Below are positions 1 to 48,644 of a stretch of DNA of 64,000 nt, one piece after another. A program made the position numbers and the translations under genes. The notes under the pieces were generated by a model. That model saw only the letters and a program-made list of their open reading frames with translations. It did not search any database and had not been told where the DNA came from. Source of the stretch: Candidatus Sulfotelmatobacter sp. (lineage in GTDB: Bacteria > Acidobacteriota > Terriglobia > Terriglobales > Acidobacteriaceae); assembly GCA_049584315.1 (NCBI GenBank), contig JBAUXO010000355.1:87558-151557 (forward strand), written 5' to 3'. Every line of letters begins with the position of its first letter. Within the stretch, counting starts at the first letter, position 1.

Positions 1-1114
1 AGTTCACTCGTGAAGTGACAACATCCTCCATGGTGGTGCCGGGAACCGCGCCCGGTATCAGGGAACGAACCAGAAGCCGGGCTACGGAAGCATTGCCGTC
101 GGGGAAGTGAAAGATATAGGGCTCGGCCTGTTCTGGCGAGTCTTCACGGCTTTCCAGTTTCATTCCCTCGAAGCCGGGATAGTCCATCTCCAGACAGTCG
201 AGCGCTGAGACAGCGTCAATGCCAACTGCATACAGTCCATGAGGCGCTGATTGAAAAACTTTCACTACCTCCGGGTCAACCTTCACGTACTGGAGCAAGA
301 AATCCTTGTAGCTAATCTTTCTTAGCTTGCGGCGCTTCTCTTCCGTAGAAAGCCCCGGCAGATAATCGACGGTCGTTTCCTGCAGGCGAGCCAGGTCTTT
401 GCGCGCCGCCTCGGAAATCGGAATCTGCGCCAGAATCTCGGGCGGGTAGGTCAAGCCAAGGTAGTGTGTTCCGAAGCCAGGCAAGCAGCGGTCGACACCG
501 AAAGTTTCTTTGTCGAAGAAAGTCGCCCGCTTCAAACCCATATTTTTATAAAGCTTTTGGTCGAAGTACTTGTAAAAGCGATCGACCTCGATTCCCAGTT
601 CCTGCAGGAGGCTGAATGCTTCTTTGCTGTAGTGATGGGGCGCTTCCAGCGACTGTGTTCCTCCATAGCCGATTAGCAGTCGCTGACCGCTCTGGAACTC
701 GTTGCGTTTCGCGTGTCCACCAAAATCGTCGTGGTTATCAACCACCAGGATTTTGGCCGCTGGTCCCGCGAACTTTCGAAAGAAGTAGGCCGACCCCAGG
801 CCGCTGATGCCGCCACCCACGACTACAAGATCGTAAGATTCCTTTTCGTCGACGGCTTCCGGCCAGGTCTGGCCGTCGCGCATTTCGTGGGCTACTTCCC
901 AGGATCCATCGTGGCTGCCCCGCATTCCTGTCTTGGCAGGTGGGTAATAGCTGGGATCCTTCTCCGGAGCGGAATCGGGCGCAGACACCGCTTCCAGCCA
1001 GGCCGGACTGCTGGCCGCCAGCGAGGCACCCACTGTGACAGCACAACCGTTCAGAAAATCGCGCCGCGTTATGGTGCGGTCCATTCCCAACGCCCGATCT
1101 CGCTCTTTGCTCAT
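1..1114 (-). CDS. Tat-exported FAD-dependent oxidoreductase, SpdH (spermidine dehydrogenase)-like, paralog 4; 3' end outside window
   Basis: Absent from the ORF track because it runs off the window edge. My reverse-complement translation starts at the ATG (complement of 1112-1114), which follows GGAGAGG. It reads [26 protein letters not shown]...[20 protein letters not shown]...VVDNHDDFGGHAKRNEF...[27 protein letters not shown], colinear with the paralogs at 7057, 8976 and 11481. Confidence 0.8.
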   Translation of the reverse strand, partial: MSKERDRALGMDRTITRRDFLNGCAVTVGASLAASSPAWLEAVSAPDSAPEKDPSYYPPAKTGMRGSHDGSWEVAHEMRDGQTWPEAVDEKESYDLVVVGGGISGLGSAYFFRKFAGPAAKILVVDNHDDFGGHAKRNEFQSGQRLLIGYGGTQSLEAPHHYSKEAFSLLQELGIEVDRFYKYFDQKLYKNMGLKRATFFDKETFGVDRCLPGFGTHYLGLTYPPEILAQIPISEAARKDLARLQETTVDYLPGLSTEEKRRKLRKISYKDFLLQYVKVDPEVVKVFQSAPHGLYAVGIDAVSALDCLEMDYPGFEGMKLESREDSPEQAEPYIFHFPDGNASVARLLVRSLIPGAVPGTTMEDVVTSRVN

Positions 1115-1218
1115 CAGCCTCTCCTCTGCGAAAACGACTTTGCCTAGTTCCAGAATCTAGCTCCCGAGTGAGCCATCGAACACAACTTGCCCCTGCTCAC
1201 CTCGCAATCTCGTCCGGC

Positions 1219-4200
1219 CTAAAAGGTCATTCGCAGAGCCAGCTGCAGGATTCTCGGGGCGTAGGTTCCGCTGATTTGGCCAAAGGTCCCTGAGGTGACG
1301 TTCGTGGCCGCAGGCGGTCGGAATTCTGCATGATTGAAGATATTGAATGCTTCGGCACGGAAGATAAGTTTCGTCCTCTCGCCCACGAGATCGGTTGACT
1401 TTTCCAGCGCCAGGTCAAGGTTGGAATGCCGCGGCCCGTGGATTGAATTCCTCCGGTACGTTCCATAGAAGCCCAGCGGACAGGTATCGCCGCTTATCTG
1501 GATGCACGGGTCCAGCCCGAATGCATTGGGATTGAACCAATAGTTTCCCGGCACACCGTTGAAGGTTTGCAGCCGCCGGGGATTAAACGTCGGCACGGAA
1601 CTGACGAATTGATCGGCTCTGACGATTTCTCCATCTCCAGCTCCTGACGGACCTGGCTGCGTGGAGAGTTGGGGAACACCGGCAAGGAAGTCCAACGGGA
1701 TTCCCGATTGAATGAAGTAAATAGGATAAAGGCTCCAGCCGCTGGTCAGACGTTTGGGGGCTTGCTCCCAGGTTTTGGCGAAGGGCAGTTCCCAACCTCC
1801 GCTCAGAGCAAATCTTTGCCTGAGGTCAAAATCTGAGTTGCCGTAGAATTCGTTGTGATCGTAGTAAGGAATAGAAGCAACCCGCGAATTGAATCCCGTT
1901 CCGTTGTCGAGGTTGTGCGACCAGGTATAGGAGCTGGTAAAGAACACGTTCCCGATATACCTCACATCCTCCGCTCTCTTCGTCAGGCTCGCGAGCAGGC
2001 CATTGTAATTCGCGTGGTTGAGGCCATCGAAGGTGGGGGCGTAACCGTAGGTGTTCGGATCGGCATTCGGATTCGAGGCCAAAAGCTCCTGATTTAGGAT
2101 CCGCGTGCTGGTCCCCAGAATCATCGGGTTTTGATCCACCCAGGTGAGCAGCTTGTGAGAAGAACTTCCGACGTAGCCAAGCTCTGCCATCAGGCCGTTG
2201 GCCAGTTGGCGCTCAACGCTCAGGTTGTACTGATAGATGAAGGGAGTTTTCAGGTGGATGTTTACGAAGTTATTGCCCGATCCCAAAAACGGCGTGAACC
2301 CCGCGTTCGTAAAGTTGATGTTCGATGGGGGCGGCTCCTGCGAAGGGAAGGGGTCGGCCACGCCACCTGTCTCGTACGGGTTCGAGAGAATCGGGCTAGG
2401 CGCATTGGTAGGAACCTGGTTTGGTGCAAAACCGAAGCTCGTACCGCCGGCCCAGGGCGCTTCGTCGGTTGCCCAATCTGACATCCAGCCGTTGAGCGTG
2501 TCAAAGAACAACCCACCCCCGCCACGGATACTGGTTTTTCCGTTGCCGAAAGGGTCCCACGCCAAGCCGATGCGCGGTGAGGCATTCGTATGGTCGGGGA
2601 AGTACCAGCCGCGGGGCGCTCCCGGATCGCCGGGAACCAGGAAGCCAAGCGGCGCCCCGGGAAACTTTATCGACTGTGCGCCCGGGACGATGCTGAAACT
2701 GTATCCATGGGTATCGGTTTCCGGACTCGTGTACTCATAGCGAAGTCCGTAGGTCAGGGTAAGGCGCGGCGTCACTCTCCATTCGTCCTGGGCGAACAAG
2801 GCATACTGTCGTTGATGCTCGTTGCTGGGTGCTTTCGAATATTCGCCAAACCCGTCCGATGCGCCGAACAAAAAGTCCGCGAGATCGTCTCCCGACCCGA
2901 TTCCGGCAAGTCCAGAGAGGTAGAAAATCCCGTTGGTCTGGTACGCGTAGATCGAGTTTTCCTGCATGAGGCCGAAGCGGCCGCCGAATTTGAAAGTGTG
3001 GTGCCCTCGATTCAAGGTCAAAGTGTCGGCTAGCGCGTAGTTGTTGTCGGCCTTCCACACCACGTTCGGATTGAAACCCAGGTTCATGCCGCTGGCGAAT
3101 TGCAACGACGGTGGCCCGAAGGGGTCGTCGGACAGAATGCCGACGCCCAGTTGCGAGGGCGTGGGCAAATGACTCGTGGGGAGGACGGTTTCATAGAAAC
3201 GCTGTGCCGTTACCAGCAGTTCATTCAAGGTGGAGAGCGAGATGGTTTTTGTGTAGGCGATATTTCCGAAATAGACCCAGGTCGTATCCGCAGCGGTAAA
3301 CCCGGCAATGTTGGCCCCAAAGAACGGGTTAAGGATCGGTTCCTTGTTGGCGCCAAGCGACAGGGAGATGCGATCGTTTCGCGTGGCGTAGAAGTCAAAC
3401 TTACCCACATACTGATTGACATTGTCCTTCTCTGGCTCCTGCGGAAAGACTTCTCCGCTGGGCGAAGTCGGGATAATGCCGGCGGCGATGTAGTTGTGGG
3501 CAACCGAATTGATCTTCGTCGGATCGATAATTCCTTGCGCGGCTAAACCTGGATTCGATTGATAGTACGGGTGCGGGCTTTGGGCGCAGTTTCCCAGATT
3601 GTTGGGTAGGACGATGGCGGGATTCCCTGTCAGATAGCATGCCACAAGAAGATTGTTGCCTTGTGAGGCCTGCGAGAAGTCGCCGTTTAACTCGGCAGGG
3701 GTGTAGGTTGTCACGAACCCCTCATTGACGGTTGCCGTCTGGCGCTGCCCCTGATAGCCAAAAAAGAAGAAAAACCGGTCTTTGCCATTCAGCAACTTGC
3801 CCAGTGTAATCGGACCGCCAATCACACCCCCAAACTGATTGCGCTTCAGCACTTGGCGAGGATTTCCCAGTTCGTTGTCGATATAGTCATTGGCGTTAAA
3901 TGCGTCATTGCGCAAGTATTCGAACAAGCTTCCATGCAACGTGTTGGTTCCTGACTTGAGTACCACACTGATGGTGCCGCCTCCGTTCCGGCCATATTCG
4001 GCGGTGTAGTTGTTCTCGAGAAGTTTGAATTCTTCCACGGCTTCAGGATTGGGATTGAATACCACCTGGTTGCTCGTGGTTCGATTGTTCATGCCGCCAT
4101 CGAGGAGGTATGTGATGGCGTCGCCGCGTCCTCCCGCCACGGTGATGCCCCCGAGTCCGGTTTCGGTGGACCCGCCATTGCTTGTGCCGTAGGTTCCAAT

Positions 4201-4743
4201 GTCATCCGCGATAGGAAGAACGCCCGGCTGGGTCAGTGCCAGGTCCAGAGTATTGCGTCCGTTGAGAGGAAGGTCCTGGATGGCTTTGCCGGTGACCGTG
4301 CCCCCGATCGTAGGATTCACCGTCTCCACCTGGGCAGCCTGCGATTGCACTTCGACAGTTTCATTCGCAGCTCCCACCTTTAAGCGAATGTCGATACGCA
4401 GCGCCTGGTTAATGGTGAGTTCCTGCGCTTCGGTCGTGGCCTTGGCGAAGCCGCGGCTCTCGACCGTTACCTTGTACATGCCGATAGGCAGGTCGAGCAC
4501 CTGGTAGCTCCCCTTGCCATCGGTCGCTGTGTTCCAGTTCACATTGGTGCCGGCGTTGGTCACGGTCACTTCGGCACCGCCCACGGCCGCTCCCTGAGGG
4601 TCAGTGACGATGCCGATCACTCGTCCGTTGGTGTCTTGTGCCCAAAGGGAAACTCCGAAGATCAAAACGGCGAGAGACAGAGTGATTGCCGCCCGCCGCG
4701 TGCAGGGTGAGCAGGAAAAACGCTTGCAGCTTCGAAGTGCCAT
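1219..4743 (-). CDS. TonB-dependent-receptor-like outer-membrane protein with carboxypeptidase-regulatory-like N-domain (TBDR-1)
   Basis: From ORF 1219..4872. I set the start at the internal ATG 4743, which has GGAGGG 6 nt upstream and gives the signal peptide MALRSCKRF...LAVLIFGVSLWAQ. GRVIGIVTDPQGAAVGGAEVTVTN...YKVTVESRGF is CarboxypepD_reg-like. The rest is a long G/N/Y/F-rich barrel sequence ending LALRMTF, with the terminal Phe typical of OMPs. Confidence 0.85.
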   Translation of the reverse strand: MALRSCKRFSCSPCTRRAAITLSLAVLIFGVSLWAQDTNGRVIGIVTDPQGAAVGGAEVTVTNAGTNVNWNTATDGKGSYQVLDLPIGMYKVTVESRGFAKATTEAQELTINQALRIDIRLKVGAANETVEVQSQAAQVETVNPTIGGTVTGKAIQDLPLNGRNTLDLALTQPGVLPIADDIGTYGTSNGGSTETGLGGITVAGGRGDAITYLLDGGMNNRTTSNQVVFNPNPEAVEEFKLLENNYTAEYGRNGGGTISVVLKSGTNTLHGSLFEYLRNDAFNANDYIDNELGNPRQVLKRNQFGGVIGGPITLGKLLNGKDRFFFFFGYQGQRQTATVNEGFVTTYTPAELNGDFSQASQGNNLLVACYLTGNPAIVLPNNLGNCAQSPHPYYQSNPGLAAQGIIDPTKINSVAHNYIAAGIIPTSPSGEVFPQEPEKDNVNQYVGKFDFYATRNDRISLSLGANKEPILNPFFGANIAGFTAADTTWVYFGNIAYTKTISLSTLNELLVTAQRFYETVLPTSHLPTPSQLGVGILSDDPFGPPSLQFASGMNLGFNPNVVWKADNNYALADTLTLNRGHHTFKFGGRFGLMQENSIYAYQTNGIFYLSGLAGIGSGDDLADFLFGASDGFGEYSKAPSNEHQRQYALFAQDEWRVTPRLTLTYGLRYEYTSPETDTHGYSFSIVPGAQSIKFPGAPLGFLVPGDPGAPRGWYFPDHTNASPRIGLAWDPFGNGKTSIRGGGGLFFDTLNGWMSDWATDEAPWAGGTSFGFAPNQVPTNAPSPILSNPYETGGVADPFPSQEPPPSNINFTNAGFTPFLGSGNNFVNIHLKTPFIYQYNLSVERQLANGLMAELGYVGSSSHKLLTWVDQNPMILGTSTRILNQELLASNPNADPNTYGYAPTFDGLNHANYNGLLASLTKRAEDVRYIGNVFFTSSYTWSHNLDNGTGFNSRVASIPYYDHNEFYGNSDFDLRQRFALSGGWELPFAKTWEQAPKRLTSGWSLYPIYFIQSGIPLDFLAGVPQLSTQPGPSGAGDGEIVRADQFVSSVPTFNPRRLQTFNGVPGNYWFNPNAFGLDPCIQISGDTCPLGFYGTYRRNSIHGPRHSNLDLALEKSTDLVGERTKLIFRAEAFNIFNHAEFRPPAATNVTSGTFGQISGTYAPRILQLALRMTF

Positions 4744-4974
4744 ATAAAGCCCTCCGGCCGAAATCGAATTTATTAACCGGTACGGATCGCAGAGACAGAA
4801 GTCCAGAAGTTTGAAAACAGATAGGGTAACGACGCGGGAACGGCTCATCGAAGGCGTGGACAACATCGTCACAAAAGACTGCGCACGGCATATGGGGCAA
4901 CCTCGGCTCCTGACGCGCCTTTGAGTCCGAATTATGCGTTGCAGATTCCGCCCAAACCTTACGAGAATTGTGGA

Positions 4975-5004
4975 AGGTTAGAAAAGTATCGCCTTCAGTG
5001 TCAA
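4975..5004 (-). promoter_or_regulatory. Putative sigma70-type promoter of TBDR-1/paralog-4 operon carrying the shared block TTGACA-N18-TAACCT
   Basis: The reverse complement reads TTGACActgaaggcgatacTTTTCTAACCTTcc. The same architecture occurs at 5203-5231 and 13574-13603. Confidence 0.5.
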
Positions 5005-5202
5005 GCGGAAAATTCCTATCGAGCGAAAGCGTTTCTTAAATCGCCCGAGCGCTCCCAGGTCGCCAGGTTCCCGGACCGCACAATACCCAGAGGGAATGGG
5101 GCTCTTCGCTTCGTCATAACGCAAACGCCCGACGTTGGCGGTACTGAGGGTTGAAATCTCCCTTCGCGGGTGGAGCGGTCCGAGGAGTGGCTTTCATTCT
5201 TC

Positions 5203-5231
5203 TTGACAGGGCTCGCTAGTTTTTCTAACCT
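5203..5231 (+). promoter_or_regulatory. Putative promoter of the ggt-spdH-like operon (TTGACA-N17-TAACCT, shared block)
   Basis: TTGACAgggctcgctagTTTTTCTAACCTTgc, followed by TATAGT at 5240-5245. It is divergent from the copy at 4975-5004. Confidence 0.5.
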
Positions 5232-5300
5232 TGCGGACTTATAGTAATGTGTGCTGCGAGACGCAGCCAATCTCTGCTCCGCAATAGCGGTGGAACTTTC

Positions 5301-6980
5301 ATGCGGGTTTTGACGGGCCTGTTCATGTTGTGGTGCCTTGGGTTGCAGCCAGCCTTGGCCCAGGACCGCGACTATGGTCGCTCCATGGTAGTGACGGACC
5401 GCGGCATTGTGGCTACCAGCCAAGTTCTAGCTTCCCAGGCTGGCGCCCATATGCTTGAGCAGGGTGGTTCGGCTATCGACGCGGCGATTGCCGCCAATGC
5501 CGTGCTGGGCGTAACTGAGCCCATGATGAACGGCATCGGTGGCGATCTGTTTCTGCTCTATTGGGTTGCAAAGAGCGGCAAGCTGTACGGGTTAAACGCA
5601 AGCGGGTGGGCTCCGCAAGGCCTCACGATCGATTTCCTGAAGAAGCAAGGCATCACCTCGATGCCTGACGATGGAATCCACAGTGTCACGGTGCCGGGAG
5701 CCGTGGATGGTTGGGCGAAGGCTCATCAGCGTTTTGGAAAATTGCCTTGGAAAGTCTTGTTTACACCTGCGATTTACTATGCCGAGAACGGCTATTTTGT
5801 CCCTGAAATCATCGACGATTTCTGGCGTATCGGGCGCACCAGGTTGAAACAGACACCGGAAGCGCAGCGTGTCTTTCTTCCCCATGGCAAGCCCCCTGCC
5901 GTGGGCGAAAAATTCTCCAATCCCGATCTGGGGAAGAGCTTGCGATTGCTGGCGGACAACGGACCTCGGGAGTTCTACGAAGGCGAAATTGCGAAAGCAA
6001 TCCTCAAGACATCGGACTCTCTGGGCGGGACCATGCAAGCCGGCGACTTGACGGAATTTTCTTCGGAGTGGGTTGATCCGATCTCGATCGATTACCGCGG
6101 GTGGAGAGTCTACGAACTTCCTCCTAATGGGCAAGGTATGGCTGCGTTGGAAATGCTGAATATCATGGCTGTCTCGCAGCCGGACAAGCAGGGCCCACAG
6201 GGGACGGTAGAGCTCAACAAGAAGATCGAAGCGATGAAGCTCGCCTACACCGACCTGTATCGCTACAACGGTGATCCTCGCTTCGCGAGTATCCCGGTGC
6301 GAGGCCTGCTTTCGAAAGAGTATGCAGAACAACGTGCCGCGTTGATTGATCCGCAGAAAGCGAATTGTGCCGCGGTCAATGGTACGCCGGCAAAAAGCGA
6401 CACCACGTACCTGGCCGTAGTCGACAGGGATGGCAACATCGCTTCCGTGATCCAGAGTGTGTACGACTATTTCGGTTCTGGCGTTGCGGTGACAGGCATG
6501 GGTTTTCTGCTGCAGGATCGAGGGGGACTATTTGTGCTCGATCCCAAACATCCGGATGCGCTCGCCCCGCACAAGCGTCCCTTCCACACCATCATTCCTG
6601 CCTTCATGGAGCGGGGAGACCAACACATCGGATTTGGGATTATGGGCGGTTCCAATCAGCCGCTTGCGCATGCGCAATTCGTGTCTGACGTAGCGGACTA
6701 TGGCTGGAACATCCAGGCAGCTCTCTCCGCTCCTCGTTTCACTATCCGCGACACCGGAGAGCCGATCAAGTGCACCATTGTTCTGGAGTCGCGGGTCTCG
6801 CCCGAAGTGCAGAGTCAATTGCGACAGAAGGGCCATGATTTGGTTCTGCGAAAGGATTATTCCGCAGTGATGGGACGGGGGCAGGCAGTGCTTCACGATT
6901 CCACAACTGGCACGAATTTTGCTGCCTCTGACCCGCGAGCCGATGGCTCCGCCGAGCCGGAGGCAATGCCAAACCAGTAG
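5301..6980 (+). CDS. ggt: Gamma-glutamyltransferase (periplasmic), paralog 1
   Basis: From ORF 5247..6980. The signal peptide begins at the internal Met at 5301 (MRVLTGLFMLWCLGLQPALAQ). GGT blocks are ASQAGAHMLEQGGSAIDAAIAANAVLGVTEPMMNGIGGD, the nucleophile-Thr context KSDTTYLAVVDRDGN, and GFGIMGGSNQP. Confidence 0.9.
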   Translation: MRVLTGLFMLWCLGLQPALAQDRDYGRSMVVTDRGIVATSQVLASQAGAHMLEQGGSAIDAAIAANAVLGVTEPMMNGIGGDLFLLYWVAKSGKLYGLNASGWAPQGLTIDFLKKQGITSMPDDGIHSVTVPGAVDGWAKAHQRFGKLPWKVLFTPAIYYAENGYFVPEIIDDFWRIGRTRLKQTPEAQRVFLPHGKPPAVGEKFSNPDLGKSLRLLADNGPREFYEGEIAKAILKTSDSLGGTMQAGDLTEFSSEWVDPISIDYRGWRVYELPPNGQGMAALEMLNIMAVSQPDKQGPQGTVELNKKIEAMKLAYTDLYRYNGDPRFASIPVRGLLSKEYAEQRAALIDPQKANCAAVNGTPAKSDTTYLAVVDRDGNIASVIQSVYDYFGSGVAVTGMGFLLQDRGGLFVLDPKHPDALAPHKRPFHTIIPAFMERGDQHIGFGIMGGSNQPLAHAQFVSDVADYGWNIQAALSAPRFTIRDTGEPIKCTIVLESRVSPEVQSQLRQKGHDLVLRKDYSAVMGRGQAVLHDSTTGTNFAASDPRADGSAEPEAMPNQ

Positions 6981-7056
6981 CGGGGCTGGTTTTCTGGGAG
7001 GGGTACCTTTGCGTCCCAGCATCGTCCATGAATATTGAACGCTTCGTCGTGAATCC

Positions 7057-8970
7057 ATGAGCGAAGAAAATCGCGACCGGCAGTTGGGAATGGGACGGCG
7101 CATCACACGGCGCGATTTCCTCAACGGCGTTGCCGTAGGCATCGGAGTGCTAGGTTACGCCAGCCTGCCCGATCTGGCTCACGCTACCCATGCTGCATTC
7201 CAAGCGGGCGCGGATTCCGCCAAATTCTATCCGCCGGCTTTGACAGGAATGAGAGGCAGCGCGCCGGGATCATACGAGGTTGCCCACGCATTGCGCGATG
7301 GAGCTTTCTGGGAAACCGCTGGAAGCCCCTCGGACACGAACGAAACGTATGATTTAGTCGTAGTCGGGGGCGGCATCAGCGGGCTGGCTGCGGCTTATTT
7401 CTACCGCAAGAATGCCGGCCCGAGTGCGCGCGTTCTAGTCCTCGATAACAACGACGATTTTGGCGGGCACGCCCGGCGCAACGAGTTCCGCGTGGACGGA
7501 CGGCTGCTGTTGAGTAACGGCGGCACCCAGTCAATTGAGAGTCCCTCGGAATACAGCGAAGTGGCCAAAGGCGTCCTCCGTGATCTGGGTGTCCAAACGA
7601 AGGCCTTTTATAAGGCCTACGATCAGAAGTTGTATTCGCATCTCGGTACCGCCTGCTTCTTTGACAAGGAGACCTTTGGTGAGGATCGCCTAGTAACTGG
7701 AATGGGCACGACTCCTTGGCCCGAGTTTCTCAAGAAGAGTCCCTTGCCGGAAGAACTACAGCAGGGGATTGCCCGTCTGTACGATGGGAAGAAGGACTAT
7801 CTTTCCGGCCTCTCAAAAGAGGAGAAACATGCGCGCCTGGCCAAGATCAGTTACGCGGGATTCTTGACCGAGATTTGTAAAGCCGATCCCGGCGTCTTGC
7901 CATTTTTCCAGAGCTATACCCACGATTTGTATGCCGTCGGAATTGATGCGGTCTCAGCGCTTGCCTGTTATAGAAATCCCGACGACTACGGGGCATGCCA
8001 CTACGCAGGTCTTGATGGAATGAACCTAGGCGGAGACCGGGAAAAAGAAGAACCCTACATTTTTCATTTTCCCGATGGGAATGCGTCCATCGCCCGCTTG
8101 CTGGTGCGCAGTCTCATCCCTGAAGCGGTTCCAGGTCACACCATGGAGGATGTGGTTACCGCAGGTGCCGACTACAGCAAGCTTGATCAATCGTCATCTC
8201 CGATGCGAATTCGCCTGAACTCAACCGCGGTGCGGGTACAACACTCCGGGCAACCAGAGTCGGCCAAAGAGGTCGAAGTCTCGTATGTCCAAGAAGGAAA
8301 GCTGAAGAAGACAATAGGGAAGTCCTGCATCCTCGCCTGTTACAACACCATGGTCCCATATCTTTGTCCCGAGCTGCCGGAAAAGCAAAAAGAAGCTCTG
8401 CACTATGGCGTGAAGGAACCATTCATTTACACCCACGTTGCGCTTCGCAATTGGGCGGCATTCCACAAACTGGGGATACGACAAATCGTCTCGCCGGGAA
8501 GTTACCACAGCTTTACTATGCTCGATTTTCCTGTCAGCCTGGGCGCGTATCAGTTTCCCAGCAACCCGCAGGAACCAATGGTGCTGTTCATGTTGCGGAC
8601 TCCCTGCAAGCCGGGGTTGCCGCGCCGAGATCAGTACCGGATGGGCAGGTTTGAACTCATCAGCACGCCATTTTCCAGGTTTGAACGCAATATCCGTGAA
8701 CAGTTGAATCGCGCACTGGCGCCGGCTGGATTCGATTCCGCCCGCGACATTGCTGCAATTACGGTCAATCGGTGGGCGCACGGTTACGCCTACGAATACG
8801 ATTCTTTGTTTGATCCGCACTGGGCGCCAGAAGAGCGACCTTGCGTCATTGGACGAAAACAATTTGGTCGAATCTCGATTGCGAATTCCGACGCCGCGGC
8901 CAGCGCTTATACGAACGCAGCAATTGACCAGGCCTATCGTGCGATTCAAGAACAAGTGAAAGGTGTGTAA
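7057..8970 (+). CDS. Tat-exported FAD-dependent oxidoreductase, SpdH-like, paralog 1
   Basis: 637 aa. Twin-arginine motif [17 protein letters not shown], dinucleotide fold [19 protein letters not shown], and family blocks [16 protein letters not shown] and [21 protein letters not shown]. Confidence 0.85.
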
Positions 8971-8975
8971 GAAAT

Positions 8976-10952: not shown

Positions 10953-11016
10953 CGGAGTCACTGCGCAGGGAGGAATCCATGTTCACCGAAGTGTTCTTGC
11001 TGTTTTATTGTTGTTG

Positions 11017-11448
11017 ATGAGCTTCGTCTTGGTGATGCCGGGCATCGCGCAAAAATCTGAAACCGAGAAAGAAATCCTTGCTCTGGAAGATAAGATGAAC
11101 GCGGCCTACGCTGCCAACGACCTTCCGACATACTTCGCTTACTACGCCGATGATTTCACTCAGTGGCTTCCCGAGGGGCGAACCGATCTGCCGCAATATA
11201 AGAAGGAGTGGACGGAATTTATCCGCAGCGGGGGGAAGATCGAATCGGATCAGATTTGCGACATGCACCTACAGGTCTGCCTCGCTGGGGACACCGTGGT
11301 TGCAAGCTACCTTTTACATGTCAGCACCCGATCGCCGAAAGGCCAGGTCAGCGATGACGACTTCCACGAGTCCGACGTCTGCTTCAAGCGTGATGGAGTC
11401 TGGAAGGTCGTACATCTGCATTATTCGCCTGCGCCGAAGAAGAAGTGA
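11017..11448 (+). CDS. Secreted NTF2-fold (SnoaL/DUF4440-like) protein
   Basis: Distal part of ORF 10765..11448. A hydrophobic leader MSFVLVMPGIAQ is followed by EKEILALEDKMNAAYAANDLPTYFAYYADDFTQW...DGVWKVVHLHYS. The start is uncertain (ATG 11017 or TTG 11008). The GGAGG at 10968 is instead followed by an out-of-frame 12-codon mini-ORF at 10979. Confidence 0.6.
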   Translation: MSFVLVMPGIAQKSETEKEILALEDKMNAAYAANDLPTYFAYYADDFTQWLPEGRTDLPQYKKEWTEFIRSGGKIESDQICDMHLQVCLAGDTVVASYLLHVSTRSPKGQVSDDDFHESDVCFKRDGVWKVVHLHYSPAPKKK

Positions 11449-11480
11449 TTCCCACTCTGTGACTTGGGGAGAACATAAGG

Positions 11481-13445
11481 ATGTCTGATTTCGAAGACCG
11501 CTACCTAGGTATGGATCGGCCGATCACGCGCCGGGATTTCATGAACGGCGCTGCTATGGTGATCGGAGCCGCCCTGCTTCCGACTGCTCGGGCGTTCGGC
11601 GTGGCGAATCCCCTGGAGCCGCAGAACGAACCCGGATACGATCCACCAGTCAAGACCGGCTTGCGCGGCAGTCATCTCGGTTCGTTCGAGATTGCGCACA
11701 GCTTGCGCGACGGCACCTTTTGGGAGAGCGCGGGCAAGCCGGTCGAGAGCGGCGAAACATATGATCTGGTGATTGTCGGAGGAGGAATCAGCGGGTTGGC
11801 CGCCGCTTATTTCTTTCGCGAGAAAGCGGGAAAGTCAGCTCGCGTTCTCATTCTTGAGAACCACGACGACTTCGGAGGTCACGCCAAGCGAAACGAATTT
11901 CACCTGGGCGGCCGGCTGCAGCTCTTGAACGGTGGAACACTCCTCATCGACAGCCCTACGGCGTACAGTCCAGAGGCCGATGGTTTGTTGAAGAAGCTCG
12001 GCATTGATCCTCCAGGATTCGAGGCGAGATACACAGACCATAAGCTCTATCGATCTCTGGGTCTCGGTTCTGCTGTCTTCTTCGATAAAGAGACATTCGG
12101 CGAGGATCGGCTGGTGGTGGGCTCTCCGGGACGCGGCTGGGACGATGAAGCGCCTGATAGCCCAGTAAGAAAAGCGCTCACCTGGACGAACTTCATGAAC
12201 CAGACGCCGCTCTCCCCTGAAGTCCGGCGCGACATTGTGCGCGTACAGGAAGCTAAAGTCGACTACCTGCCGGGTCTCTCTTCGGCAGAGAAGAAGGCAA
12301 GACTTTCAAAGATGAGCTATCGGGACTTTCTGCTCAACGTGGTGAAGGTGGACCCCGGAGTGATTCCGTTTTACCAGCGCCGCACGGAGGGAGAATGGGG
12401 AGTCGGAATTGACGCCGAGCCCGCTTTGGACTGCTGGGCTCTCGGCTTCGCTGGATTTCAAGGCATGGGTCTGCAGTCCGGTGCCGCACCGCACATGAGT
12501 TATTCAGCGGCTGGTTACGCCAGCGGCGGTTCGTATCGTTTTCATTTTCCTGATGGGAACGCTTCGATTGCTCGATTACTTGTGAGGGCGCTCATTCCAG
12601 AGGCTGTTCCTGGCCACACGGCGGAAGATGTGGTCACCGCCCAAGTCGACTACAGCCGCCTGGACCGAGAAGATGCTCCCTTAAGACTTCGCCTGAACAG
12701 CACGGTGGTCGGCGCACGCAATGTTGGAACGCCTTCTGCCGCTCAAGAAGTCGAGGTTCTCTACGCGAGTGGCAAGCAAGTGTTTCGAGTACGGGCCAAG
12801 GGGTGCGTGCTGGCATGCTGGAACATGATGATTCCTTATTTGTGCCCGGAGCTTCCCGAAGCACAAAAGGAGGCCTTGCATTACCTGGTCAAAGTGCCGT
12901 TGGTTTACACCAGCGTCGGCATTCGGAACTGGACATCATTCCAAAAGCTAGGCATTCAGCGCGTCTCTTCGCCGGGTTCCTACTGGTCCGATGTTAGCCT
13001 CAACTCCGCAGTGAACCTGGGTGAGTATCGAAGTCCCACGAACCCCGAAGAACCAATCTTATTGCATCTCAGTCGGGCTCCCTGCAAGCCTGGCTTGCCA
13101 GCCCGGGAGCAGCACAAAATCGGCAGATACGAACTGCTGACCACGACTTTTGAGACTTTCGAGCGGAAAATCCGTGACCAGCTCGCCCGTACTCTAAGCG
13201 CCGGGGGCTTCGAACCGGCGCGCGACATCGAGGCCATCACCGTGAATCGCTGGCCGCATGGCTATGGTTACGAGTACAACCCGCTATTCGATCCCGACTG
13301 GCCCGAAGACCAGCGTCCCAACGTGATCGGCCGCAAACCCTTTGGACGGATCACCATTGCCAACACCGATTCTGCGGCAACCGCCTATACCGATACGGCG
13401 ATCGATCAGGCATACCGGGCCGTGAACGAGTTATTGCGCGGCTGA
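11481..13445 (+). CDS. Tat-exported FAD-dependent oxidoreductase, SpdH-like, paralog 3
   Basis: 654 aa with an AAGGA RBS. Motifs: [72 protein letters not shown]. By eye it is closest to paralog 2. Confidence 0.85.
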   Translation: MSDFEDRYLGMDRPITRRDFMNGAAMVIGAALLPTARAFGVANPLEPQNEPGYDPPVKTGLRGSHLGSFEIAHSLRDGTFWESAGKPVESGETYDLVIVGGGISGLAAAYFFREKAGKSARVLILENHDDFGGHAKRNEFHLGGRLQLLNGGTLLIDSPTAYSPEADGLLKKLGIDPPGFEARYTDHKLYRSLGLGSAVFFDKETFGEDRLVVGSPGRGWDDEAPDSPVRKALTWTNFMNQTPLSPEVRRDIVRVQEAKVDYLPGLSSAEKKARLSKMSYRDFLLNVVKVDPGVIPFYQRRTEGEWGVGIDAEPALDCWALGFAGFQGMGLQSGAAPHMSYSAAGYASGGSYRFHFPDGNASIARLLVRALIPEAVPGHTAEDVVTAQVDYSRLDREDAPLRLRLNSTVVGARNVGTPSAAQEVEVLYASGKQVFRVRAKGCVLACWNMMIPYLCPELPEAQKEALHYLVKVPLVYTSVGIRNWTSFQKLGIQRVSSPGSYWSDVSLNSAVNLGEYRSPTNPEEPILLHLSRAPCKPGLPAREQHKIGRYELLTTTFETFERKIRDQLARTLSAGGFEPARDIEAITVNRWPHGYGYEYNPLFDPDWPEDQRPNVIGRKPFGRITIANTDSAATAYTDTAIDQAYRAVNELLRG

Positions 13446-13573
13446 TCGCCAGCGCGATTGTTACTTTGCAGAAATTGCACATCCGGAAAAGACCTGACGG
13501 TTCCCCCGCCTTCTGCCTTGGACGCAGAAAATCTCAATCGGTTCGTCTGATCGAAGGCATCGCGATTTTGGGC

Positions 13574-13603
13574 TTGACAGGGGAGATGTACTTTCTCTAA
13601 CCT
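13574..13603 (+). promoter_or_regulatory. Putative promoter of TBDR-2 with the shared block (TTGACA-N18-TAACCT)
   Basis: TTGACAggggagatgtacTTTCTCTAACCTTcc, followed by TATAGT at 13612-13617. Confidence 0.5.
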
Positions 13604-13728
13604 TCCCAATCTATAGTAGAGTTTGTGAGCCCTTCTAGCCCAAAGTTCTTGTCTGCTGCCTGCCGCGCAGTGCGTCAAGATGGCAACAGGTTCTTAGGCA
13701 TTCTTCGCGATTGCTTAGGAGACCGCTC

Positions 13729-16700
13729 ATGGTGCCGTGGAAACGTTTTGCGTTCTTGTTGTGTTGCTTGGCGTGTCCGCTTTTGGCATGGTCACAGACG
13801 GGTCTCACCTCATTGCGCGGCACGGTTACCGATTCCTCGGGAGCCGTACTTGCAGGTGCAGAGGTCAGCCTTGAGAACCCATCGACTGGGTTTCACATGG
13901 CCCACACCACGGACCAGAGCGGGGCTTACGAGTTTCCTCAAATCCCGCCCGGCGACTACACAATTACACTGACCAAAGCAGGATTCGGCAAGCAGGTGAA
14001 AGCCGCCGAACTCCTGGTCAGCCAGCCTGCGACGATAAATTTTGCACTCTCCGTTCAGGCCGTGACTCAGACTATCGAAGTTAGTGATGTCGCGCAGACT
14101 CTCAATACGACCGATGCGACCATCGGCAATGCTGTGAGCAATTCCACGATCGAGGCCCTTCCCATCGAAGGGCGTAATGCGCCGGACTTGTTAAGCCTGC
14201 AACCTGGCGTCGTGTACCTGAATTCCCGCGTGACCAATCCTGACGAGGACAGCAGAAGCGGGGCGGTGAATGGCGCTCGTTCCGATCAGGGCAACATCAC
14301 TCTGGACGGAGTTGACGACAACGACCAGAGGCAGGGTTACGCGTTCACTGGGGCGCTGCGGTCGACGCTGGATTCCGTGGAAGAGTTTCGTGTCAGCACA
14401 ACCAACTCCAACGCGGACAGCGGCCGTTCTTCGGGCGCACAGGTCACGCTTGTGACCAAGAGCGGGACCAATACTCTTCACGGCAGCCTCTATGAATACA
14501 ACCGCACTAATTTTGGGCATGCCAATAACTGGTTCAACAAGGCGGCTGAGATGGAGGCAGGATTGCCGAATAAGCCAGGCCAGTTGATTCGCAACACATT
14601 TGGGGGGACGTTCGGGGGCCCCATCAGGAAAGACAAGATTTTCTTTTTTATAAACTACGAGGGCCAGAAGACACAGGAAAACCAGCAACAGAGCCTGACT
14701 GTCCCGAATGCTTCATTCGCGGCTGGTAATGTCAGTTATAACTGCTCGGGCAGTCCGGGATGCCCTGCAAGTGGGGTTCAGACGCTGACACCGGCACAGG
14801 TCGCCACTATGGACCCGATTTGTACGACTACTTGTCCTTGGGGGCCCGGTGACGACCCAAACGCGCTGGCCACGTTTCGCGCCTACCCTGGCCCCAATAG
14901 TCCCGGGGGAGATGGGCTGAATACCGGCGGCTTCACCTGGTCCGCTCCCGCTCCTGCCCGGCTCAATACCTACATCGCTAAGTTCGACTATCAACTGAGT
15001 GATCGCCAACGTCTGTTTGTGCGCGGCAACCTGCAGGGCGACAGGAGTTCTTCGGCCCCGGAGTTTCCCGGCAATCCTCCGAGTGCGTCCGTCGTGGACA
15101 CCGCGAAGGGAATTGCCATCGGTCACACCTGGACCGTCAGCAGCACCCTGATTAATAACTTCCGCTATGGCTATATCCGCCAAGCGTTGAACAACGTGGG
15201 GGCAGGGAACAACTCCTTCTCGGATTTTGCGGGAATCAGCCCGCTAACCGCCGAAAACAATACCACCATCCTAGATGTCCCCGTGCAAAACCTTATCGAT
15301 GACTTTACCTGGGTCAAGGGCAAACACACACTGCAGTTCGGGGCAAACTACCGTTTGATCCACAACAACACGGCCTCGAATAACGTCTCATTCGGCTCGG
15401 CTTCGACGGGAGCGGCCAACATCAGTCAGGCTGCCATTGCGGGAACCGGCCAGAGCTTTGATCCCGAGGCGTTTGGTTTCCCAGCAGTGTCTGGGGCCTT
15501 CTCCACCAGCTACGACAATGCAATTACCTCCATCGCGGGTTTGTTAAGCACCATTAACCTGCATAACAATTATCAGGTGACGAACTCAACCACCGCTACA
15601 CTATTGCCGACCGGTGCGATGATCCCTCGTGATTTCAAAGCCAACGAATTCGAGTGGTACGTGCAGGATTCCTGGCGTGTGAAGCCCAATCTGACGGTTA
15701 CGGCAGGTCTGCGACACACCCTTTTGCAGACTCCGTATGAAGTGCATGGGCAACAGGTTGCGCCCACCGTAGACTTGCACCAATGGTTCGCCAATCGCGC
15801 CACTGCCGCCGCTCAAGGGTTCGGGAATCAACCGGAATTCGCCTTTGCTCCTTCCGGCCAGAGCCGCGGGGGCAATGCGTACTGGAACGCGAACAAACTG
15901 AATTTTGCTCCCCGCTTCGCAGTCGCTTACTCTCCCAATCTCAAAACCTCGATTCGTGCCGGCGTGGGCCTGTACTACGACCATTTTGGCCAAGGGATTG
16001 TTGACGGTTTCAGCCAGTTCGGCTCGTTCGGCTTGACCAGCACGCAGGCGGCTCCGTCGAACATCTTCACGCCGGACGATGCGCCACGTTATACCGGGAG
16101 AAACATCGTGCCGCCGTTGCCCGGCGGCGCTCCACAACAAACGGTCACTTATCCCGCATTCCCTCCCGATAATCCCAACACGACCGGGTTTACCTTCAAC
16201 TCGAATGGAATCGATGGCCAAATCAACACCCCCTACTCCATGGCGGCGGATTTCTCCGTCCAGCGGCAGCTAGGCAAGGGATGGACGTTCGAAGCTGCCT
16301 ACGTGGGCCGGTTTGGCCGCCACCTCCTGCAGCAGCGCGATCTGGCCGCTGGTACTGATCTTGTGGATCCAAAGTCCGGCATGGACTATTACACGGCGGC
16401 AACCTTAATGTCGAAATTTGCGCTGGCGCACGGTGAAGATCCGGGTGCCACAATTTCTCCAATTCCTTACTTTGAAGATCTATTCCCGACTGCGGCGGCA
16501 GGCGGGTTTAGCGCGTCCCAGAATATTTACACGGGCTCCGGCGGCACCAACGCTTGTCCTTCGGGTTTCAGCTGGGCGAACCGGCCGGGACGAGAAGTCG
16601 GCGCGCCCTTCCGCTTGGGATTGATTGCGACTGCTCTTGCCAATGGAGGCGAGTCTCCTGTTTGTGCCGGGTTGCCGCCGGTGCCCTACTGGGACCCTCA

Positions 16701-17580
16701 GTTCTCCTCTCTTTTCGCGTGGTCGTCTCTCGGTACCAGCAGTTACAACGCTGGCCAACTCATGTTGCGCCATCCTATGAGTCGTGGCCTGCAGGTCGAC
16801 TTCAGCTATACCTATTCCAAGTCGCTCGATTTGGGTTCGGATGCCGAACGCACGAATTCGCAGGGGACGACGTCAACGACTACCCCGGTCGGCCAGGGCG
16901 TTAGTACCGTCCTGAGCTACATTGCGAATCCCTGGAACCCGGGGTTGAATCGCGCGCCGTCGGACTTCGATTTGCGCCATGTGATCACTGCGGACTGGGT
17001 TTACGAATTGCCTTTCGGCAAAGGAAAGACTTTCGCCGGTGGCTCAGGAACCTGGCTCGATGCCATTATCGGAGGCTGGCAGATCTCCGGCCTGAATCGC
17101 TGGACCAGTGGGTTTCCTTTTAGCGCCATCGATTCACGAGGTTTCACTCAGAACTTCCTTTTCGAGAGCAACATGGTGCAAACGGGCCCGGTCAGCTCGG
17201 GCGTATTCATGATCGGCGGAGCCCCGTATGCCTTTCCCAATCCAAGTGCCGTGGTGGCCGGGGTACAAATAACACCCGACGTTCCAGCTACCCTGACCCC
17301 GATGCGCTTCGCCTACCCAGGGGAAGCCGGAAGCCGCAACAACTTCCGCGGCCCGGGCTACTTCGGGATTGACATGGGTTTGGCGAAGAGTTGGAAAGTC
17401 CGCGAGCGCATGGACTTGAAGTTTGCTTGGGAGGTTTTCAACTTAACCAACTCGGTGCGTTTCGATACAAATACGAACACCTCACTGGATAATGGTTCCG
17501 ACGACGGCTCGTTCGGTTTGTACCGCGCGACGCTGACGGTTGAACGGGTCCAACAATTCTCGTTGAGGTTCGGTTTTTAA
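13729..17580 (+). CDS. TonB-dependent-receptor-like outer-membrane protein with carboxypeptidase-regulatory-like N-domain (TBDR-2)
   Basis: From ORF 13711..17580. The ATG at 13729 is preceded by AGGAGA. Signal peptide MVPWKRFAFLLCCLACPLLAWSQ. TSLRGTVTDSSGAVLAGAEVSLEN...YTITLTKAGF is CarboxypepD_reg-like. The protein ends FSLRFGF. Confidence 0.85.
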   Translation: MVPWKRFAFLLCCLACPLLAWSQTGLTSLRGTVTDSSGAVLAGAEVSLENPSTGFHMAHTTDQSGAYEFPQIPPGDYTITLTKAGFGKQVKAAELLVSQPATINFALSVQAVTQTIEVSDVAQTLNTTDATIGNAVSNSTIEALPIEGRNAPDLLSLQPGVVYLNSRVTNPDEDSRSGAVNGARSDQGNITLDGVDDNDQRQGYAFTGALRSTLDSVEEFRVSTTNSNADSGRSSGAQVTLVTKSGTNTLHGSLYEYNRTNFGHANNWFNKAAEMEAGLPNKPGQLIRNTFGGTFGGPIRKDKIFFFINYEGQKTQENQQQSLTVPNASFAAGNVSYNCSGSPGCPASGVQTLTPAQVATMDPICTTTCPWGPGDDPNALATFRAYPGPNSPGGDGLNTGGFTWSAPAPARLNTYIAKFDYQLSDRQRLFVRGNLQGDRSSSAPEFPGNPPSASVVDTAKGIAIGHTWTVSSTLINNFRYGYIRQALNNVGAGNNSFSDFAGISPLTAENNTTILDVPVQNLIDDFTWVKGKHTLQFGANYRLIHNNTASNNVSFGSASTGAANISQAAIAGTGQSFDPEAFGFPAVSGAFSTSYDNAITSIAGLLSTINLHNNYQVTNSTTATLLPTGAMIPRDFKANEFEWYVQDSWRVKPNLTVTAGLRHTLLQTPYEVHGQQVAPTVDLHQWFANRATAAAQGFGNQPEFAFAPSGQSRGGNAYWNANKLNFAPRFAVAYSPNLKTSIRAGVGLYYDHFGQGIVDGFSQFGSFGLTSTQAAPSNIFTPDDAPRYTGRNIVPPLPGGAPQQTVTYPAFPPDNPNTTGFTFNSNGIDGQINTPYSMAADFSVQRQLGKGWTFEAAYVGRFGRHLLQQRDLAAGTDLVDPKSGMDYYTAATLMSKFALAHGEDPGATISPIPYFEDLFPTAAAGGFSASQNIYTGSGGTNACPSGFSWANRPGREVGAPFRLGLIATALANGGESPVCAGLPPVPYWDPQFSSLFAWSSLGTSSYNAGQLMLRHPMSRGLQVDFSYTYSKSLDLGSDAERTNSQGTTSTTTPVGQGVSTVLSYIANPWNPGLNRAPSDFDLRHVITADWVYELPFGKGKTFAGGSGTWLDAIIGGWQISGLNRWTSGFPFSAIDSRGFTQNFLFESNMVQTGPVSSGVFMIGGAPYAFPNPSAVVAGVQITPDVPATLTPMRFAYPGEAGSRNNFRGPGYFGIDMGLAKSWKVRERMDLKFAWEVFNLTNSVRFDTNTNTSLDNGSDDGSFGLYRATLTVERVQQFSLRFGF

Positions 17581-17599
17581 GTTGCAGGTGGAGACGAGC

Positions 17600-18472
17600 T
17601 CAGAATGTTGGTGGAGTATTTACCCAGAGAACGGCAGCTTGCTTATTGGTCGGGTTGAACCAGCGGTGGCCACGGTTGCTCTCGAACCAAAAGCTGTCAC
17701 CCTCCTCCAGCAGGTGACATTCGACCTCATCAAGCCAGACTTCCAACGTGCCGTCTAGCATGTACAGGAAGTCCTCGCCCTGGTGCATGTACGCACCGTC
17801 GCTTCCCGTCCCTGGGGGAACTCGAATCAGCATGGATTCGAGCATCTTCGTGCCCGTCGAAAGCAGTTCCATGCGGACACCCGACTTCGTTTCCAGGCTT
17901 TTGCGATTGCGTGGCCGGATCACACGATTAGATTGCGCAGGTAAGTCATAGAGTTCCAATACCGTGGTGCCATATGCTGCTGCCAATCGGTAAATTGTGG
18001 CTACGGAAGGATTGGCACGAGAGAGTTCGATGGCGCTGAGAAAGCCTGCAGAAATGTGGGCCTGCCGAGCCGCCTTGGTTACGGTCAGGCCTCTTTTCTT
18101 TCGGAGCCGACGGAGTTTGTCACCCAGATCTGGAGTGGGCTTGACAGGATGCATTGACTTTCTAACACGTAGATCTGTTCCTAGGGCTTCCTTTATCCCG
18201 GGGACATTTAGTTTCTTTACGTCGCGCAGGTACTTGATGCGTTTTAGAACGTCGAGCAACTCGGGAGTATATAGGCGATAACTACCTGCGCTTCGCGCCG
18301 GAGTCACAAGACCCACGCCTTCCCAGAGACGCAATGTCGAGGAACTGATTCCCAGAATTCGCGCGGTCTGCCCCACAGTCAGAAACCGCACACTTTCCGA
18401 ATTAGCAATGCGCCTTGATTTGGGTGATTTTGGGCGTCGCAAGCAATTAATAGTAACCCCGAATATTACCAA
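17600..18472 (-). CDS. Three-module transcription regulator: MerR-type HTH + XRE-type HTH + C-terminal cupin (PuuR-like core)
   Basis: 290 aa. VGQTARILGISSSTLRLWEGVGLVTPARSAGSYRLYTPELLDVLKRIKYLRD is MerR-like. LGDKLRRLRKKRGLTVTKAARQAHISAGFLSAIELSRANPSVATIYRLAAAYGTTVLELY is XRE-like. HQGEDFLYMLDGTLEVWLDE...GDSFWFESNRGHRWFN is a cupin. Confidence 0.8.
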   Translation of the reverse strand: MVIFGVTINCLRRPKSPKSRRIANSESVRFLTVGQTARILGISSSTLRLWEGVGLVTPARSAGSYRLYTPELLDVLKRIKYLRDVKKLNVPGIKEALGTDLRVRKSMHPVKPTPDLGDKLRRLRKKRGLTVTKAARQAHISAGFLSAIELSRANPSVATIYRLAAAYGTTVLELYDLPAQSNRVIRPRNRKSLETKSGVRMELLSTGTKMLESMLIRVPPGTGSDGAYMHQGEDFLYMLDGTLEVWLDEVECHLLEEGDSFWFESNRGHRWFNPTNKQAAVLWVNTPPTF

Positions 18473-18519
18473 ATGTGAAATTTGCTGATTTGGTTGTAAT
18501 GTAACGGGAAAGCACGACT

Positions 18520-19255: not shown

Positions 19256-19324
19256 TTTTACAACAGTCTGCCTTCAAACTCCCCCTCGACGCAGGAGTAC
19301 CATTGTGTAGCTAAGGGGTCTGAT

Positions 19325-20047: not shown

Positions 20048-20113
20048 GGGTCGTGACTGTTGAAATCGCGTCAATAGATGCACTTTTTTGACCCGGACGG
20101 GTGTCGGGCAATT

Positions 20114-32499: not shown

Positions 32500-32503
32500 G
32501 CGC

Positions 32504-48610: not shown

Positions 48611-48644
48611 CTGGGAAGGCCAGCACGATGAATAGGAGAAGCCG

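Follow-up and report, generated by a model that had tools for sequence, protein, structure and literature searches.

Loci for nutrient acquisition through TonB-dependent receptors (TBDRs), such as the polysaccharide utilization loci (PULs) of Bacteroidota and the carbohydrate utilization (CUT) loci of Xanthomonas, bring together a TBDR, exported degradative enzymes, an inner-membrane transporter, cytoplasmic enzymes and a local regulator, and TBDRs are very numerous in Acidobacteria. Polyamines are ubiquitous and rich in nitrogen, but little is known of the ways in which the abundant oligotrophs of soil obtain them. In Escherichia coli, expression of the puu genes is repressed by PuuR, a putrescine-responsive protein with an XRE-type helix-turn-helix (HTH) and a cupin domain. 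Spermidine dehydrogenase (EC 1.5.99.6) of Pseudomonas aeruginosa (PaSpdH, PA3713) holds haem b with His54 and His562 as axial ligands (PMC12564564), its leader containing SRRDFLNG has been experimentally validated as a twin-arginine translocation (Tat) signal (PMC6085387), and the periplasmic location of SpdH has also been argued elsewhere (PMC11107197). Substrates have been established for PaSpdH and a few enterobacterial enzymes only and not for the other homologues; uncharacterized members are wanted as direct-electron-transfer enzymes for biosensors (PMC12564564). Here we describe a locus at positions 1-18472 of a 64-kb window, which is the whole stretch analysed (64,000 nucleotides of contig JBAUXO010000355.1, positions 87,558 to 151,557, assembly GCA_049584315.1), from the peat-soil acidobacterium Candidatus Sulfotelmatobacter sp. 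This locus probably makes up most of a regulon of approximately 22 kb for polyamine acquisition and catabolism, predicted to capture spermidine, spermine and their relatives, possibly in amide-capped forms, and to break them down outside the cytoplasm. Homology, export signals, synteny and a shared cis-element together support a regulon for polyamines or amines, of which the window carries the outer-membrane and periplasmic half. An earlier note, made from the letters of this stretch, had proposed an export-only locus for scavenging amines or polyamines, possibly as gamma-glutamyl amines; the polyamine reading has gained support, and the gamma-glutamyl reading has not.

Spermidine dehydrogenase homologues and their neighbours

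Open reading frame (ORF) listing, translation, and Pfam and NCBIfam scans of the locus gave four flavoproteins with Tat signals, two TBDRs of about 1200 aa, a hydrolase of the gamma-glutamyltransferase (GGT) family, an exported NTF2 protein and a regulator, so that every gene listed in the earlier note was recovered in its place. SpdH_B (7057-8970, forward strand) and SpdH_C (8976-10952, forward) match the PaSpdH structure 7D9F with E-values of 9e-160 and 2e-157, both over residues 3-618, which is essentially the whole chain. Together with SpdH_D (11481-13445, forward) and SpdH_A (1-1114, reverse), they are 46% identical to PaSpdH and 54-60% identical among themselves. SpdH_A is cut by the window edge to its N-terminal 371 aa, and its full 646 aa were read from a related locus (L081, 2118-4058; related loci are given here with L numbers). 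The Rossmann motif for flavin adenine dinucleotide (FAD), GxGxxG, is detected in all four (PF13450, E 1e-9 to 1e-11) with VVGGGISGL invariant, and the two haem ligands are kept as well, H54 in the motif EVAH or EIAH and H562 in NRWxHGY. Comparison of 111 homologues left 98 invariant positions, including GxGxxG, H54, H562 and Y443. The twin-arginine motif SRRDF(L/M)NG is present in all four copies, and the Tat model TIGR01409 scores above its cut-off for A, B and C; since this motif is identical to that of PA3713, the same periplasmic location is to be expected. Thus, the flavoproteins, for which the earlier note could name only SpdH as a characterized relative, are true SpdH homologues by full-length homology, conserved H54, H562 and Y443, and a shared leader, and they are predicted to be periplasmic FAD/haem-b enzymes with activity on polyamines.

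Two residues of PaSpdH, D282 and Y443, are known from mutant structures (D282A, 7D9I; Y443A, 7D9J). Y443 is kept in all the four paralogues, and D282 is found only in SpdH_B, which is thus of the canonical type, with Gly at this position in A, C and D. Among the columns of the alignment, only position 282 divides the family cleanly, with 60 sequences of the D type and 49 of the G type.

TBDR1 (1219-4743, reverse; 1174 aa) is the first gene of a leftward operon and consists of a CarboxypepD_reg domain and an OMP_b-brl_4 barrel (PF25183, E 4e-176; PF00593, E 3e-10), an architecture of the Oar/CarboxypepD_reg type. TBDR2 (13729-17580, forward) is also of the CarboxypepD_reg type, has the same barrel (PF25183, E 6e-148), and is 26% identical to TBDR1. 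Orthologues of TBDR1 with 56-86% identity adjoin SpdH or amidohydrolase genes in at least 15 genomes, and those of TBDR2 are found in L055, L075 and L205. Because the receptors share an operator with the other genes, as described below, and orthologous TBDR1 is retained, a chance adjacency of TBDRs to the SpdH genes was rejected. Another TBDR-led locus, with the appearance of a system for sugar utilization, lies in the window at 42838-51912 (forward) and encodes, besides a CarboxypepD_reg TBDR of 1163 aa, a GH5/GH42-like protein of 729 aa, a ROK kinase, a SIS-domain protein and an MFS transporter. TBDR-first loci are thus a general layout in this genome.

What lies beyond the left edge of the window? 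An identical contig in GCA_049584675.1 (L084) runs past this edge and gives the order TBDR1-SpdH_A-238-aa ORF-amidohydrolase, in which TBDR1 and SpdH_A are separated by 104 bp. The amidohydrolase is an Amidohydro_3 protein of 578 aa with a twin-arginine leader (GRREFLG), whose start is overlapped by 26 nt by the 238-aa ORF (L084, 15714-16430). No signal peptide and no Pfam or NCBIfam match was found for the latter ORF. Only the closest relatives (L045) share it, L039 and L055 being without it, and it is therefore probably a lineage-specific insertion into the operon. Sec-type leaders, judged by eye from the translations, are carried by the TBDRs, the GGT-family protein and the NTF2 protein; the claim that every structural product is exported holds within positions 1-18472 and fails for the whole operon, in which the 238-aa ORF lacks an export signal. 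Further beyond, L084 encodes a convergent Sec-exported dehydrogenase with pyrroloquinoline quinone (PQQ) and cytochrome c domains (18460-20586). Such Sec-exported PQQ dehydrogenases with C-terminal cytochrome c recur beside the modules (also L056, 11937-14267; L059, 11965-14298; and L115), and they might oxidize aminoaldehyde products in the periplasm.

A scan of one genome per species, followed by tblastn mapping, ORF clustering and a tree with gene context, provided 80 loci, nearly all from metagenome-assembled genomes (MAGs) of Acidobacteriota. In about 45 genomes, SpdH is encoded once, in the D282 type, and no TBDR is near. Loci with two or more SpdH genes typically have a D-type and a G-type gene in tandem, beside a TBDR1 orthologue and an Amidohydro_3 gene of 550-580 aa, in orders such as TBDR-amidohydrolase-SpdH(D)-SpdH(G) (L042, L043, L046) or TBDR-SpdH(D)-SpdH(G)-amidohydrolase (L052, L061). 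The Amidohydro_3 product, nearly always with a Tat or Sec leader, is encoded beside TBDR and SpdH genes in 15 loci, and its best match in PDB is 3ICJ, annotated as "uncharacterized". The G282-type SpdH occurs with the amidohydrolase in 13/33 versus 1/47 loci (p 2e-5) and with a TBDR in 18/33 versus 5/47 loci (p 3e-5), in a test that ignores phylogeny. The conserved partner of TBDR and SpdH is an exported amidohydrolase, not GGT. Linkage of TBDR with SpdH is conserved in many soil Acidobacteria, and GGT, which the earlier note had included in the module, belongs to it in a part of the clade only. The gene order GGT-SpdH-SpdH-NTF2-SpdH is conserved in L045, L075, L105, L114 and L205-L207, which are the only loci, all window-like, that have GGT. 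GGT is absent from L039 and L055, where SpdH_B is 86-88% identical and TBDR1, SpdH_A/B/C and the amidohydrolase are kept, and from all the more distant TBDR-amidohydrolase-SpdH loci as mapped by tblastn. The NTF2-fold protein (SnoaL_3/DUF4440; 11017-11448, forward) is always encoded directly 5′ of a SpdH_D-type gene; Foldseek searches with its AlphaFold2 model (pLDDT 88) returned generic matches only (NTF2, CaMKII-hub and DUF4440 folds).

A side branch of the family is found in a different setting: one clade of G282-type SpdH (at about 10000-11950) is located among genes for aromatic-acid catabolism in seven loci (L057, L058, L062, L065, L071, L072 and L079), whose products, named from sequence only, are BoxB-like, BoxC-like, 4-hydroxybenzoate hydroxylase-like, pcaB-like and a BoxR-like regulator. 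This neighbourhood may be a hint of aromatic-amine conjugates, or it may reflect synteny and nothing else.

A shared operator and its candidate regulator

Comparison of intergenic regions in the window revealed TTGACA-N15/16-TCTAACCTT 5′ of TBDR1, GGT and TBDR2, one for each transcription unit, and these three are all the matches in 64 kb, where zero would be expected. As all the three units share this promoter/operator, the grouping of their genes is not by chance. At TBDR1 (4955-5004, reverse) the sequence reads TTGACA-N16-TCTAACCTT and contains a perfect inverted repeat, AACCTT-N13-AAGGTT, at 4955-4981. The right half-site is degenerate at the promoter of the GGT-SpdH_B-SpdH_C-NTF2-SpdH_D operon (5203-5251, forward; AATGTG) and at that of TBDR2 (13574-13623, forward; AGAGTT). 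Alignment of orthologous promoters defined a conserved -35 box, a 17-nt spacer, and a -10-like element TAACCT, which constitutes the left arm of the inverted repeat. A variant operator with a non-palindromic right arm, AACCTTGCGGACTTATAGTAATGT, is conserved at 5225-5251 of the window and in orthologous GGT/SpdH_B promoters of L001, L002, L039, L055 and L075, and this non-palindromic arm suggests that the regulator would bind there more weakly than, or differently from, at the TBDR1 promoter. It is to be noted that the SpdH_B orthologue of L001 (9733-11920; 92% identical) stands alone in another genomic context, behind the same promoter/operator as that of the GGT-SpdH_B promoter in the window.

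Does the motif simply represent a strong promoter used for any gene? In 1.57 Mb of related loci, 12 copies of the perfect repeat were counted, against about 0.3 that we estimate by chance, and every copy is located directly 5′ of a TBDR1 orthologue or a SpdH gene. A relaxed motif gave 23 matches in these loci, nearly all 5′ of SpdH, TBDR, amidohydrolase or GGT genes. Since the matches are confined almost wholly to genes of the module, a general strong promoter was rejected. Generic scans of the sequence for sigma-70 promoters and terminators returned fewer matches than shuffled sequences and were thus uninformative. A scan of metagenome contigs with an exact pattern of 20 specified bases matched at least 120 contigs, where a few matches would be expected by chance, an estimate made without a known size of the collection. 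Among the matches listed, a TBDR follows the motif in 101/119, most of the others being cut by contig ends, and 96/120 contigs encode a homologue of the regulator, 35-47% identical and usually divergent from the motif.

This regulator (17600-18391, reverse) is convergent with TBDR2 and consists of a MerR-type HTH (MerR_1, E 4e-17), an XRE-type HTH (HTH_31/HTH_3, residues 115-174) and a cupin domain (Cupin_2, residues 215-284), which are about equally conserved over 97 members of a family that has more than 4000, none of them informatively named. The XRE-HTH and cupin domains had been recognized in the earlier note and the MerR-type domain had been missed; likewise, its analogy with PuuR stands for the architecture only, as the protein scores 56 bits with the PuuR model NF007408 against a cut-off of 211 and has the additional domain. 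The position and symmetry of the operator fit a dimeric repressor that would act at the -10 region.

Genes at 18.5-35 kb of the window (a GFO/IDH/MocA oxidoreductase, an OmpR-TPR regulator, and multicopper oxidase, OEP and cytochrome c genes) have neither the operator nor a link to the locus. Cytochrome c, OEP and multicopper oxidase stand there in a row (31894-35396, reverse) and look like an unrelated set for oxidation or efflux of copper or other metals.

Candidate substrates and rival explanations

Products of polyamine cleavage must be further assimilated, and related loci contain genes suited to this task. Genes for aldehyde dehydrogenase (ALDH), class-III aminotransferase, arginase-family protein, copper amine oxidase, PQQ-cytochrome c dehydrogenase and APC permease are found beside SpdH, TBDR or amidohydrolase genes in L049, L050, L056, L059 and L076. 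L056 (1-20062), from a MAG of Bryobacteraceae, shows the proposed pathway in its fullest form: two amidohydrolases, a TBDR, two ALDHs, two SpdH, a PQQ-cytochrome c dehydrogenase, a class-III aminotransferase, an APC permease and a regulator provide outer-membrane, periplasmic, inner-membrane, cytoplasmic and regulatory parts within 20 kb. Operons like that of the window, TBDR-SpdH_A-amidohydrolase behind the operator, are found in L105, L114 and L115, and in at least 25 metagenome contigs the operator lies between a divergent regulator gene and an operon for TBDR, transaminase, APC permease, ALDH, a further transaminase and a further ALDH. The operon in L143 encodes a class-III transaminase, an APC transporter of the GadC/basic-amino-acid-polyamine type and an ALDH of the aminobutyraldehyde/betaine-aldehyde type, and further genes in it score above the cut-offs for gamma-aminobutyrate (GABA) transaminase (TIGR00700, 564 bits versus 507) and methylmalonate/malonate-semialdehyde dehydrogenase (MMSDH; TIGR01722, 569 versus 449). 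As read from such models, enzymes of this type are the set needed to assimilate 4-aminobutanal/GABA as well as 3-aminopropanal/beta-alanine/1,3-diaminopropane. These compounds are known products of SpdH, and their fates in P. aeruginosa include the KauB/beta-alanine route (PMC9397018; PMC7576179). Thus, the regulator family and operator on operons of aminotransferase, ALDH and APC permease point to amine catabolism. It also follows that the "export-only" character proposed earlier is an artefact of the window, because an inner-membrane permease and cytoplasmic enzymes are encoded in related loci as well.

How would such a system work? In the absence of substrate, the MerR-XRE-cupin regulator would sit on AACCTT-N13-AAGGTT, overlapping the -10 elements of three near-identical promoters, and amine binding to the cupin domain would release it, by analogy with PuuR. 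TBDR1 and TBDR2 would then let the substrate pass the outer membrane with energy from TonB, as their family and context suggest. In the periplasm, the four Tat-exported SpdH proteins are supposed to cleave C-N bonds at secondary amines, which would yield 1,3-diaminopropane, aminoaldehydes and shorter amines, with electrons passing via haem b to the respiratory chain. The Tat-exported YtcJ-type amidohydrolase and the GGT-family Ntn (N-terminal nucleophile) hydrolase of this lineage may remove acyl caps or hydrolyse amide products. APC-type permeases, class-III aminotransferases, aldehyde dehydrogenases and MMSDH, presumably encoded elsewhere in this genome and found behind the same operator in relatives, would complete the assimilation.

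Several points weigh against this reading. Three of the four paralogues lack D282, the residue that the crystallographers of PaSpdH chose for mutation (7D9I), so that free spermidine may not be a substrate of SpdH_A, C and D. Porins can already admit molecules as small as free spermidine and spermine, and the need for TBDRs is unexplained unless the substrates are scarce or bulky; moreover, a Plug domain was detected only weakly in TBDR1 (E 0.006, 17.6 bits versus a cut-off of 23.9) and not at all in TBDR2. Genes for an inner-membrane transporter, an aminotransferase or an ALDH are missing from the window. In the aminotransferase-type operons, the TBDR is a different paralogue with only about 30% identity to TBDR1, so that several TBDR clades share one control element. 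Finally, the MerR-XRE-cupin protein is a candidate binder of the operator by co-occurrence only, and no operator was found 5′ of its own gene in the window.

Some of these difficulties would disappear if the true substrates were amide-conjugated polyamines too big for porins, such as N-acyl or hydroxycinnamoyl polyamines (plant phenolamides), acetyl-polyamines or siderophores with a polyamine backbone, with the G282 paralogues taking the capped end and the caps being removed by the amidohydrolase and the GGT-like acylase. The D282G change as the only position that strictly separates the SpdH types, the co-occurrence of the G type, not the D type, with Tat amidohydrolase and TBDRs, the recurrent tandem pairs of both types, and two different exported amide hydrolases in one regulon are all in its favour, as is the greater sense of a TBDR for bulky ligands, and the G-type clade among genes for benzoate, 4-hydroxybenzoate and protocatechuate in seven genomes fits it too. 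However, that aromatic neighbourhood is possibly a single phylogenetic event, the amidohydrolase has no characterized close relative, and no catabolic genes for the acyl acids are found in the window. Bulky amide-capped polyamines are the most economical explanation for the need of TBDRs and the association of G282 with amide hydrolases, and we consider this idea possible and tentative.

Could the conjugates be gamma-glutamyl amines, with GGT freeing the amine before SpdH acts, as the earlier note supposed? GGT (5301-6980, forward) is the first gene of the SpdH_B-C-NTF2-D operon under a common promoter, its gene order is kept in the window-like relatives mentioned above, and the protein matches the family model PF01019 (E 4e-144, 482 bits), with a TIGR00066 score of 375 bits just over the cut-off of 358. 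Nevertheless, it gives only 245 bits with the E. coli-type model NF007187, whose cut-off of 990 is not reached, and its best solved relative is 2NLZ of Bacillus halodurans, annotated as a cephalosporin acylase (E 4e-119), followed by 2I3O of Thermoplasma acidophilum. When it is aligned to E. coli GGT (2E0W; chain numbering +24), the nucleophile Thr391 and the oxyanion hole Gly483-Gly484 are conserved (SD-TT-YLAV, MGGS). R114, N411, Q430, D433, S462 and S463, which we take to be the residues that hold the gamma-glutamyl group in the E. coli enzyme, are all replaced (R114S, N411Y, Q430R, D433L, S462H and S463T). The same replacements and the Thr nucleophile are seen in 2NLZ and 2I3O, which are called class IV cephalosporin acylase-like, and the protein here differs from them in its Sec leader and its co-transcription with SpdH genes. 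By its sequence, it is an exported Ntn amide hydrolase, and as the binding residues are replaced, its acyl specificity cannot be inferred. In view of these replacements, of the acylase-like subgroup, and of the absence of GGT from L039, L055 and the more distant loci, harvest of gamma-glutamyl amines appears improbable. A second GGT-family paralogue, 48% identical to that of the locus, is encoded at 59987-61729 of the window (reverse) with no linked SpdH genes.

Another view, which we regard as unlikely, is that the SpdH paralogues act on secondary or tertiary amines other than polyamines, such as opine- or nicotianamine-type metallophores or N-alkyl amino acids imported by the TBDRs. Few enzymes of the family have known substrates (PMC12564564), and the G282 change and the four-fold paralogy suggest a diversified specificity, but the operator and regulator family control GABA transaminase, aminobutyraldehyde-type ALDH, MMSDH and APC permeases of the GadC/polyamine type, which fits the breakdown of di- or polyamines, and so do the arginase-family protein and copper amine oxidase of related loci. 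The receptors might even work in the opposite direction. Myxococcus Oar is a TonB-dependent transporter reported to secrete a protein, and the CarboxypepD_reg-type TBDRs share with it the architecture given by the N-terminal CarboxypepD_reg domain; no solved homologue of TBDR1 was found by sequence search. In that case, Tat-folded enzymes would be brought to the cell surface and oxidation would be extracellular. Such export is very improbable, since the same promoter/operator heads TBDR operons of inner-membrane permeases and cytoplasmic enzymes, which are sensible for import only. Besides, the electrons from SpdH require an acceptor that is linked to the cell, and another TBDR locus nearby in the window has the typical genes for sugar import. 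Polyamine acquisition and catabolism is the reading that we prefer.

Comparison with described systems

SpdH, GGT-like acylases, PuuR-like sensors and TBDR-led utilization loci are each already known. In agreement with the earlier note, which knew of no such pathway, no description was found in the searchable literature of their combination, of a battery of four SpdH paralogues with a D282G split, of a Tat amidohydrolase as its partner, or of the three-domain regulator family and its operator. The sole match in the literature for TonB and "spermidine dehydrogenase" was carboxyspermidine dehydrogenase in petrobactin clusters, which is irrelevant here. If the proposal is true, amines join the substrate range of TonB-dependent transporters. 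The SpdH family, little studied so far, has radiated into periplasmic batteries of multiple paralogues in Acidobacteriota, and a defined operator with a regulator family of this size makes it possible to annotate amine catabolism across thousands of soil MAGs. As a speculation, soil and peat Acidobacteria might have dedicated TonB-dependent polyamine utilization loci, whose receptors would be the first of their kind for polyamines or their conjugates. In these loci, amide-capped polyamines such as plant phenolamides or polyamine-based metallophores would be taken apart in the periplasm by G282-type SpdH, the Tat-exported amidohydrolase and the GGT-like acylase, with the electrons fed directly to respiration and with control by a hitherto unrecognized MerR-XRE-cupin amine sensor at AACCTT-N13-AAGGTT.

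Compared with PaSpdH (PA3713; PDB 7D9F-7D9J), the flavoproteins are alike over their full length, in the FAD motif, in H54, H562 and Y443 and in the Tat motif, and the downstream logic of aminoaldehyde dehydrogenase, beta-alanine/GABA transamination and MMSDH is alike as well, here behind the same operator in relatives. The differences are that four paralogues are encoded instead of one, three of them with D282G, in TBDR-led operons with exported amide hydrolases and the NTF2 protein under a different regulator, in a system so far read from DNA. Residues 116-290 of this regulator align end to end with positions 8-185 of the PuuR model, and it would have the same role as PuuR, an amine-sensing repressor with a site overlapping the promoter. 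Unlike PuuR, it has the added N-terminal MerR-type HTH, equally conserved, and is proposed to control TBDR-led operons, not a gamma-glutamylation pathway, via an operator derived in this work. With PULs and CUT loci, the locus shares its layout, of which the window contains a sugar version as well. In contrast to them, it has no SusD-like partner, its substrates would be polyamines or other amines rather than glycans, and its periplasmic enzymes are redox flavohaemoproteins rather than hydrolases only.

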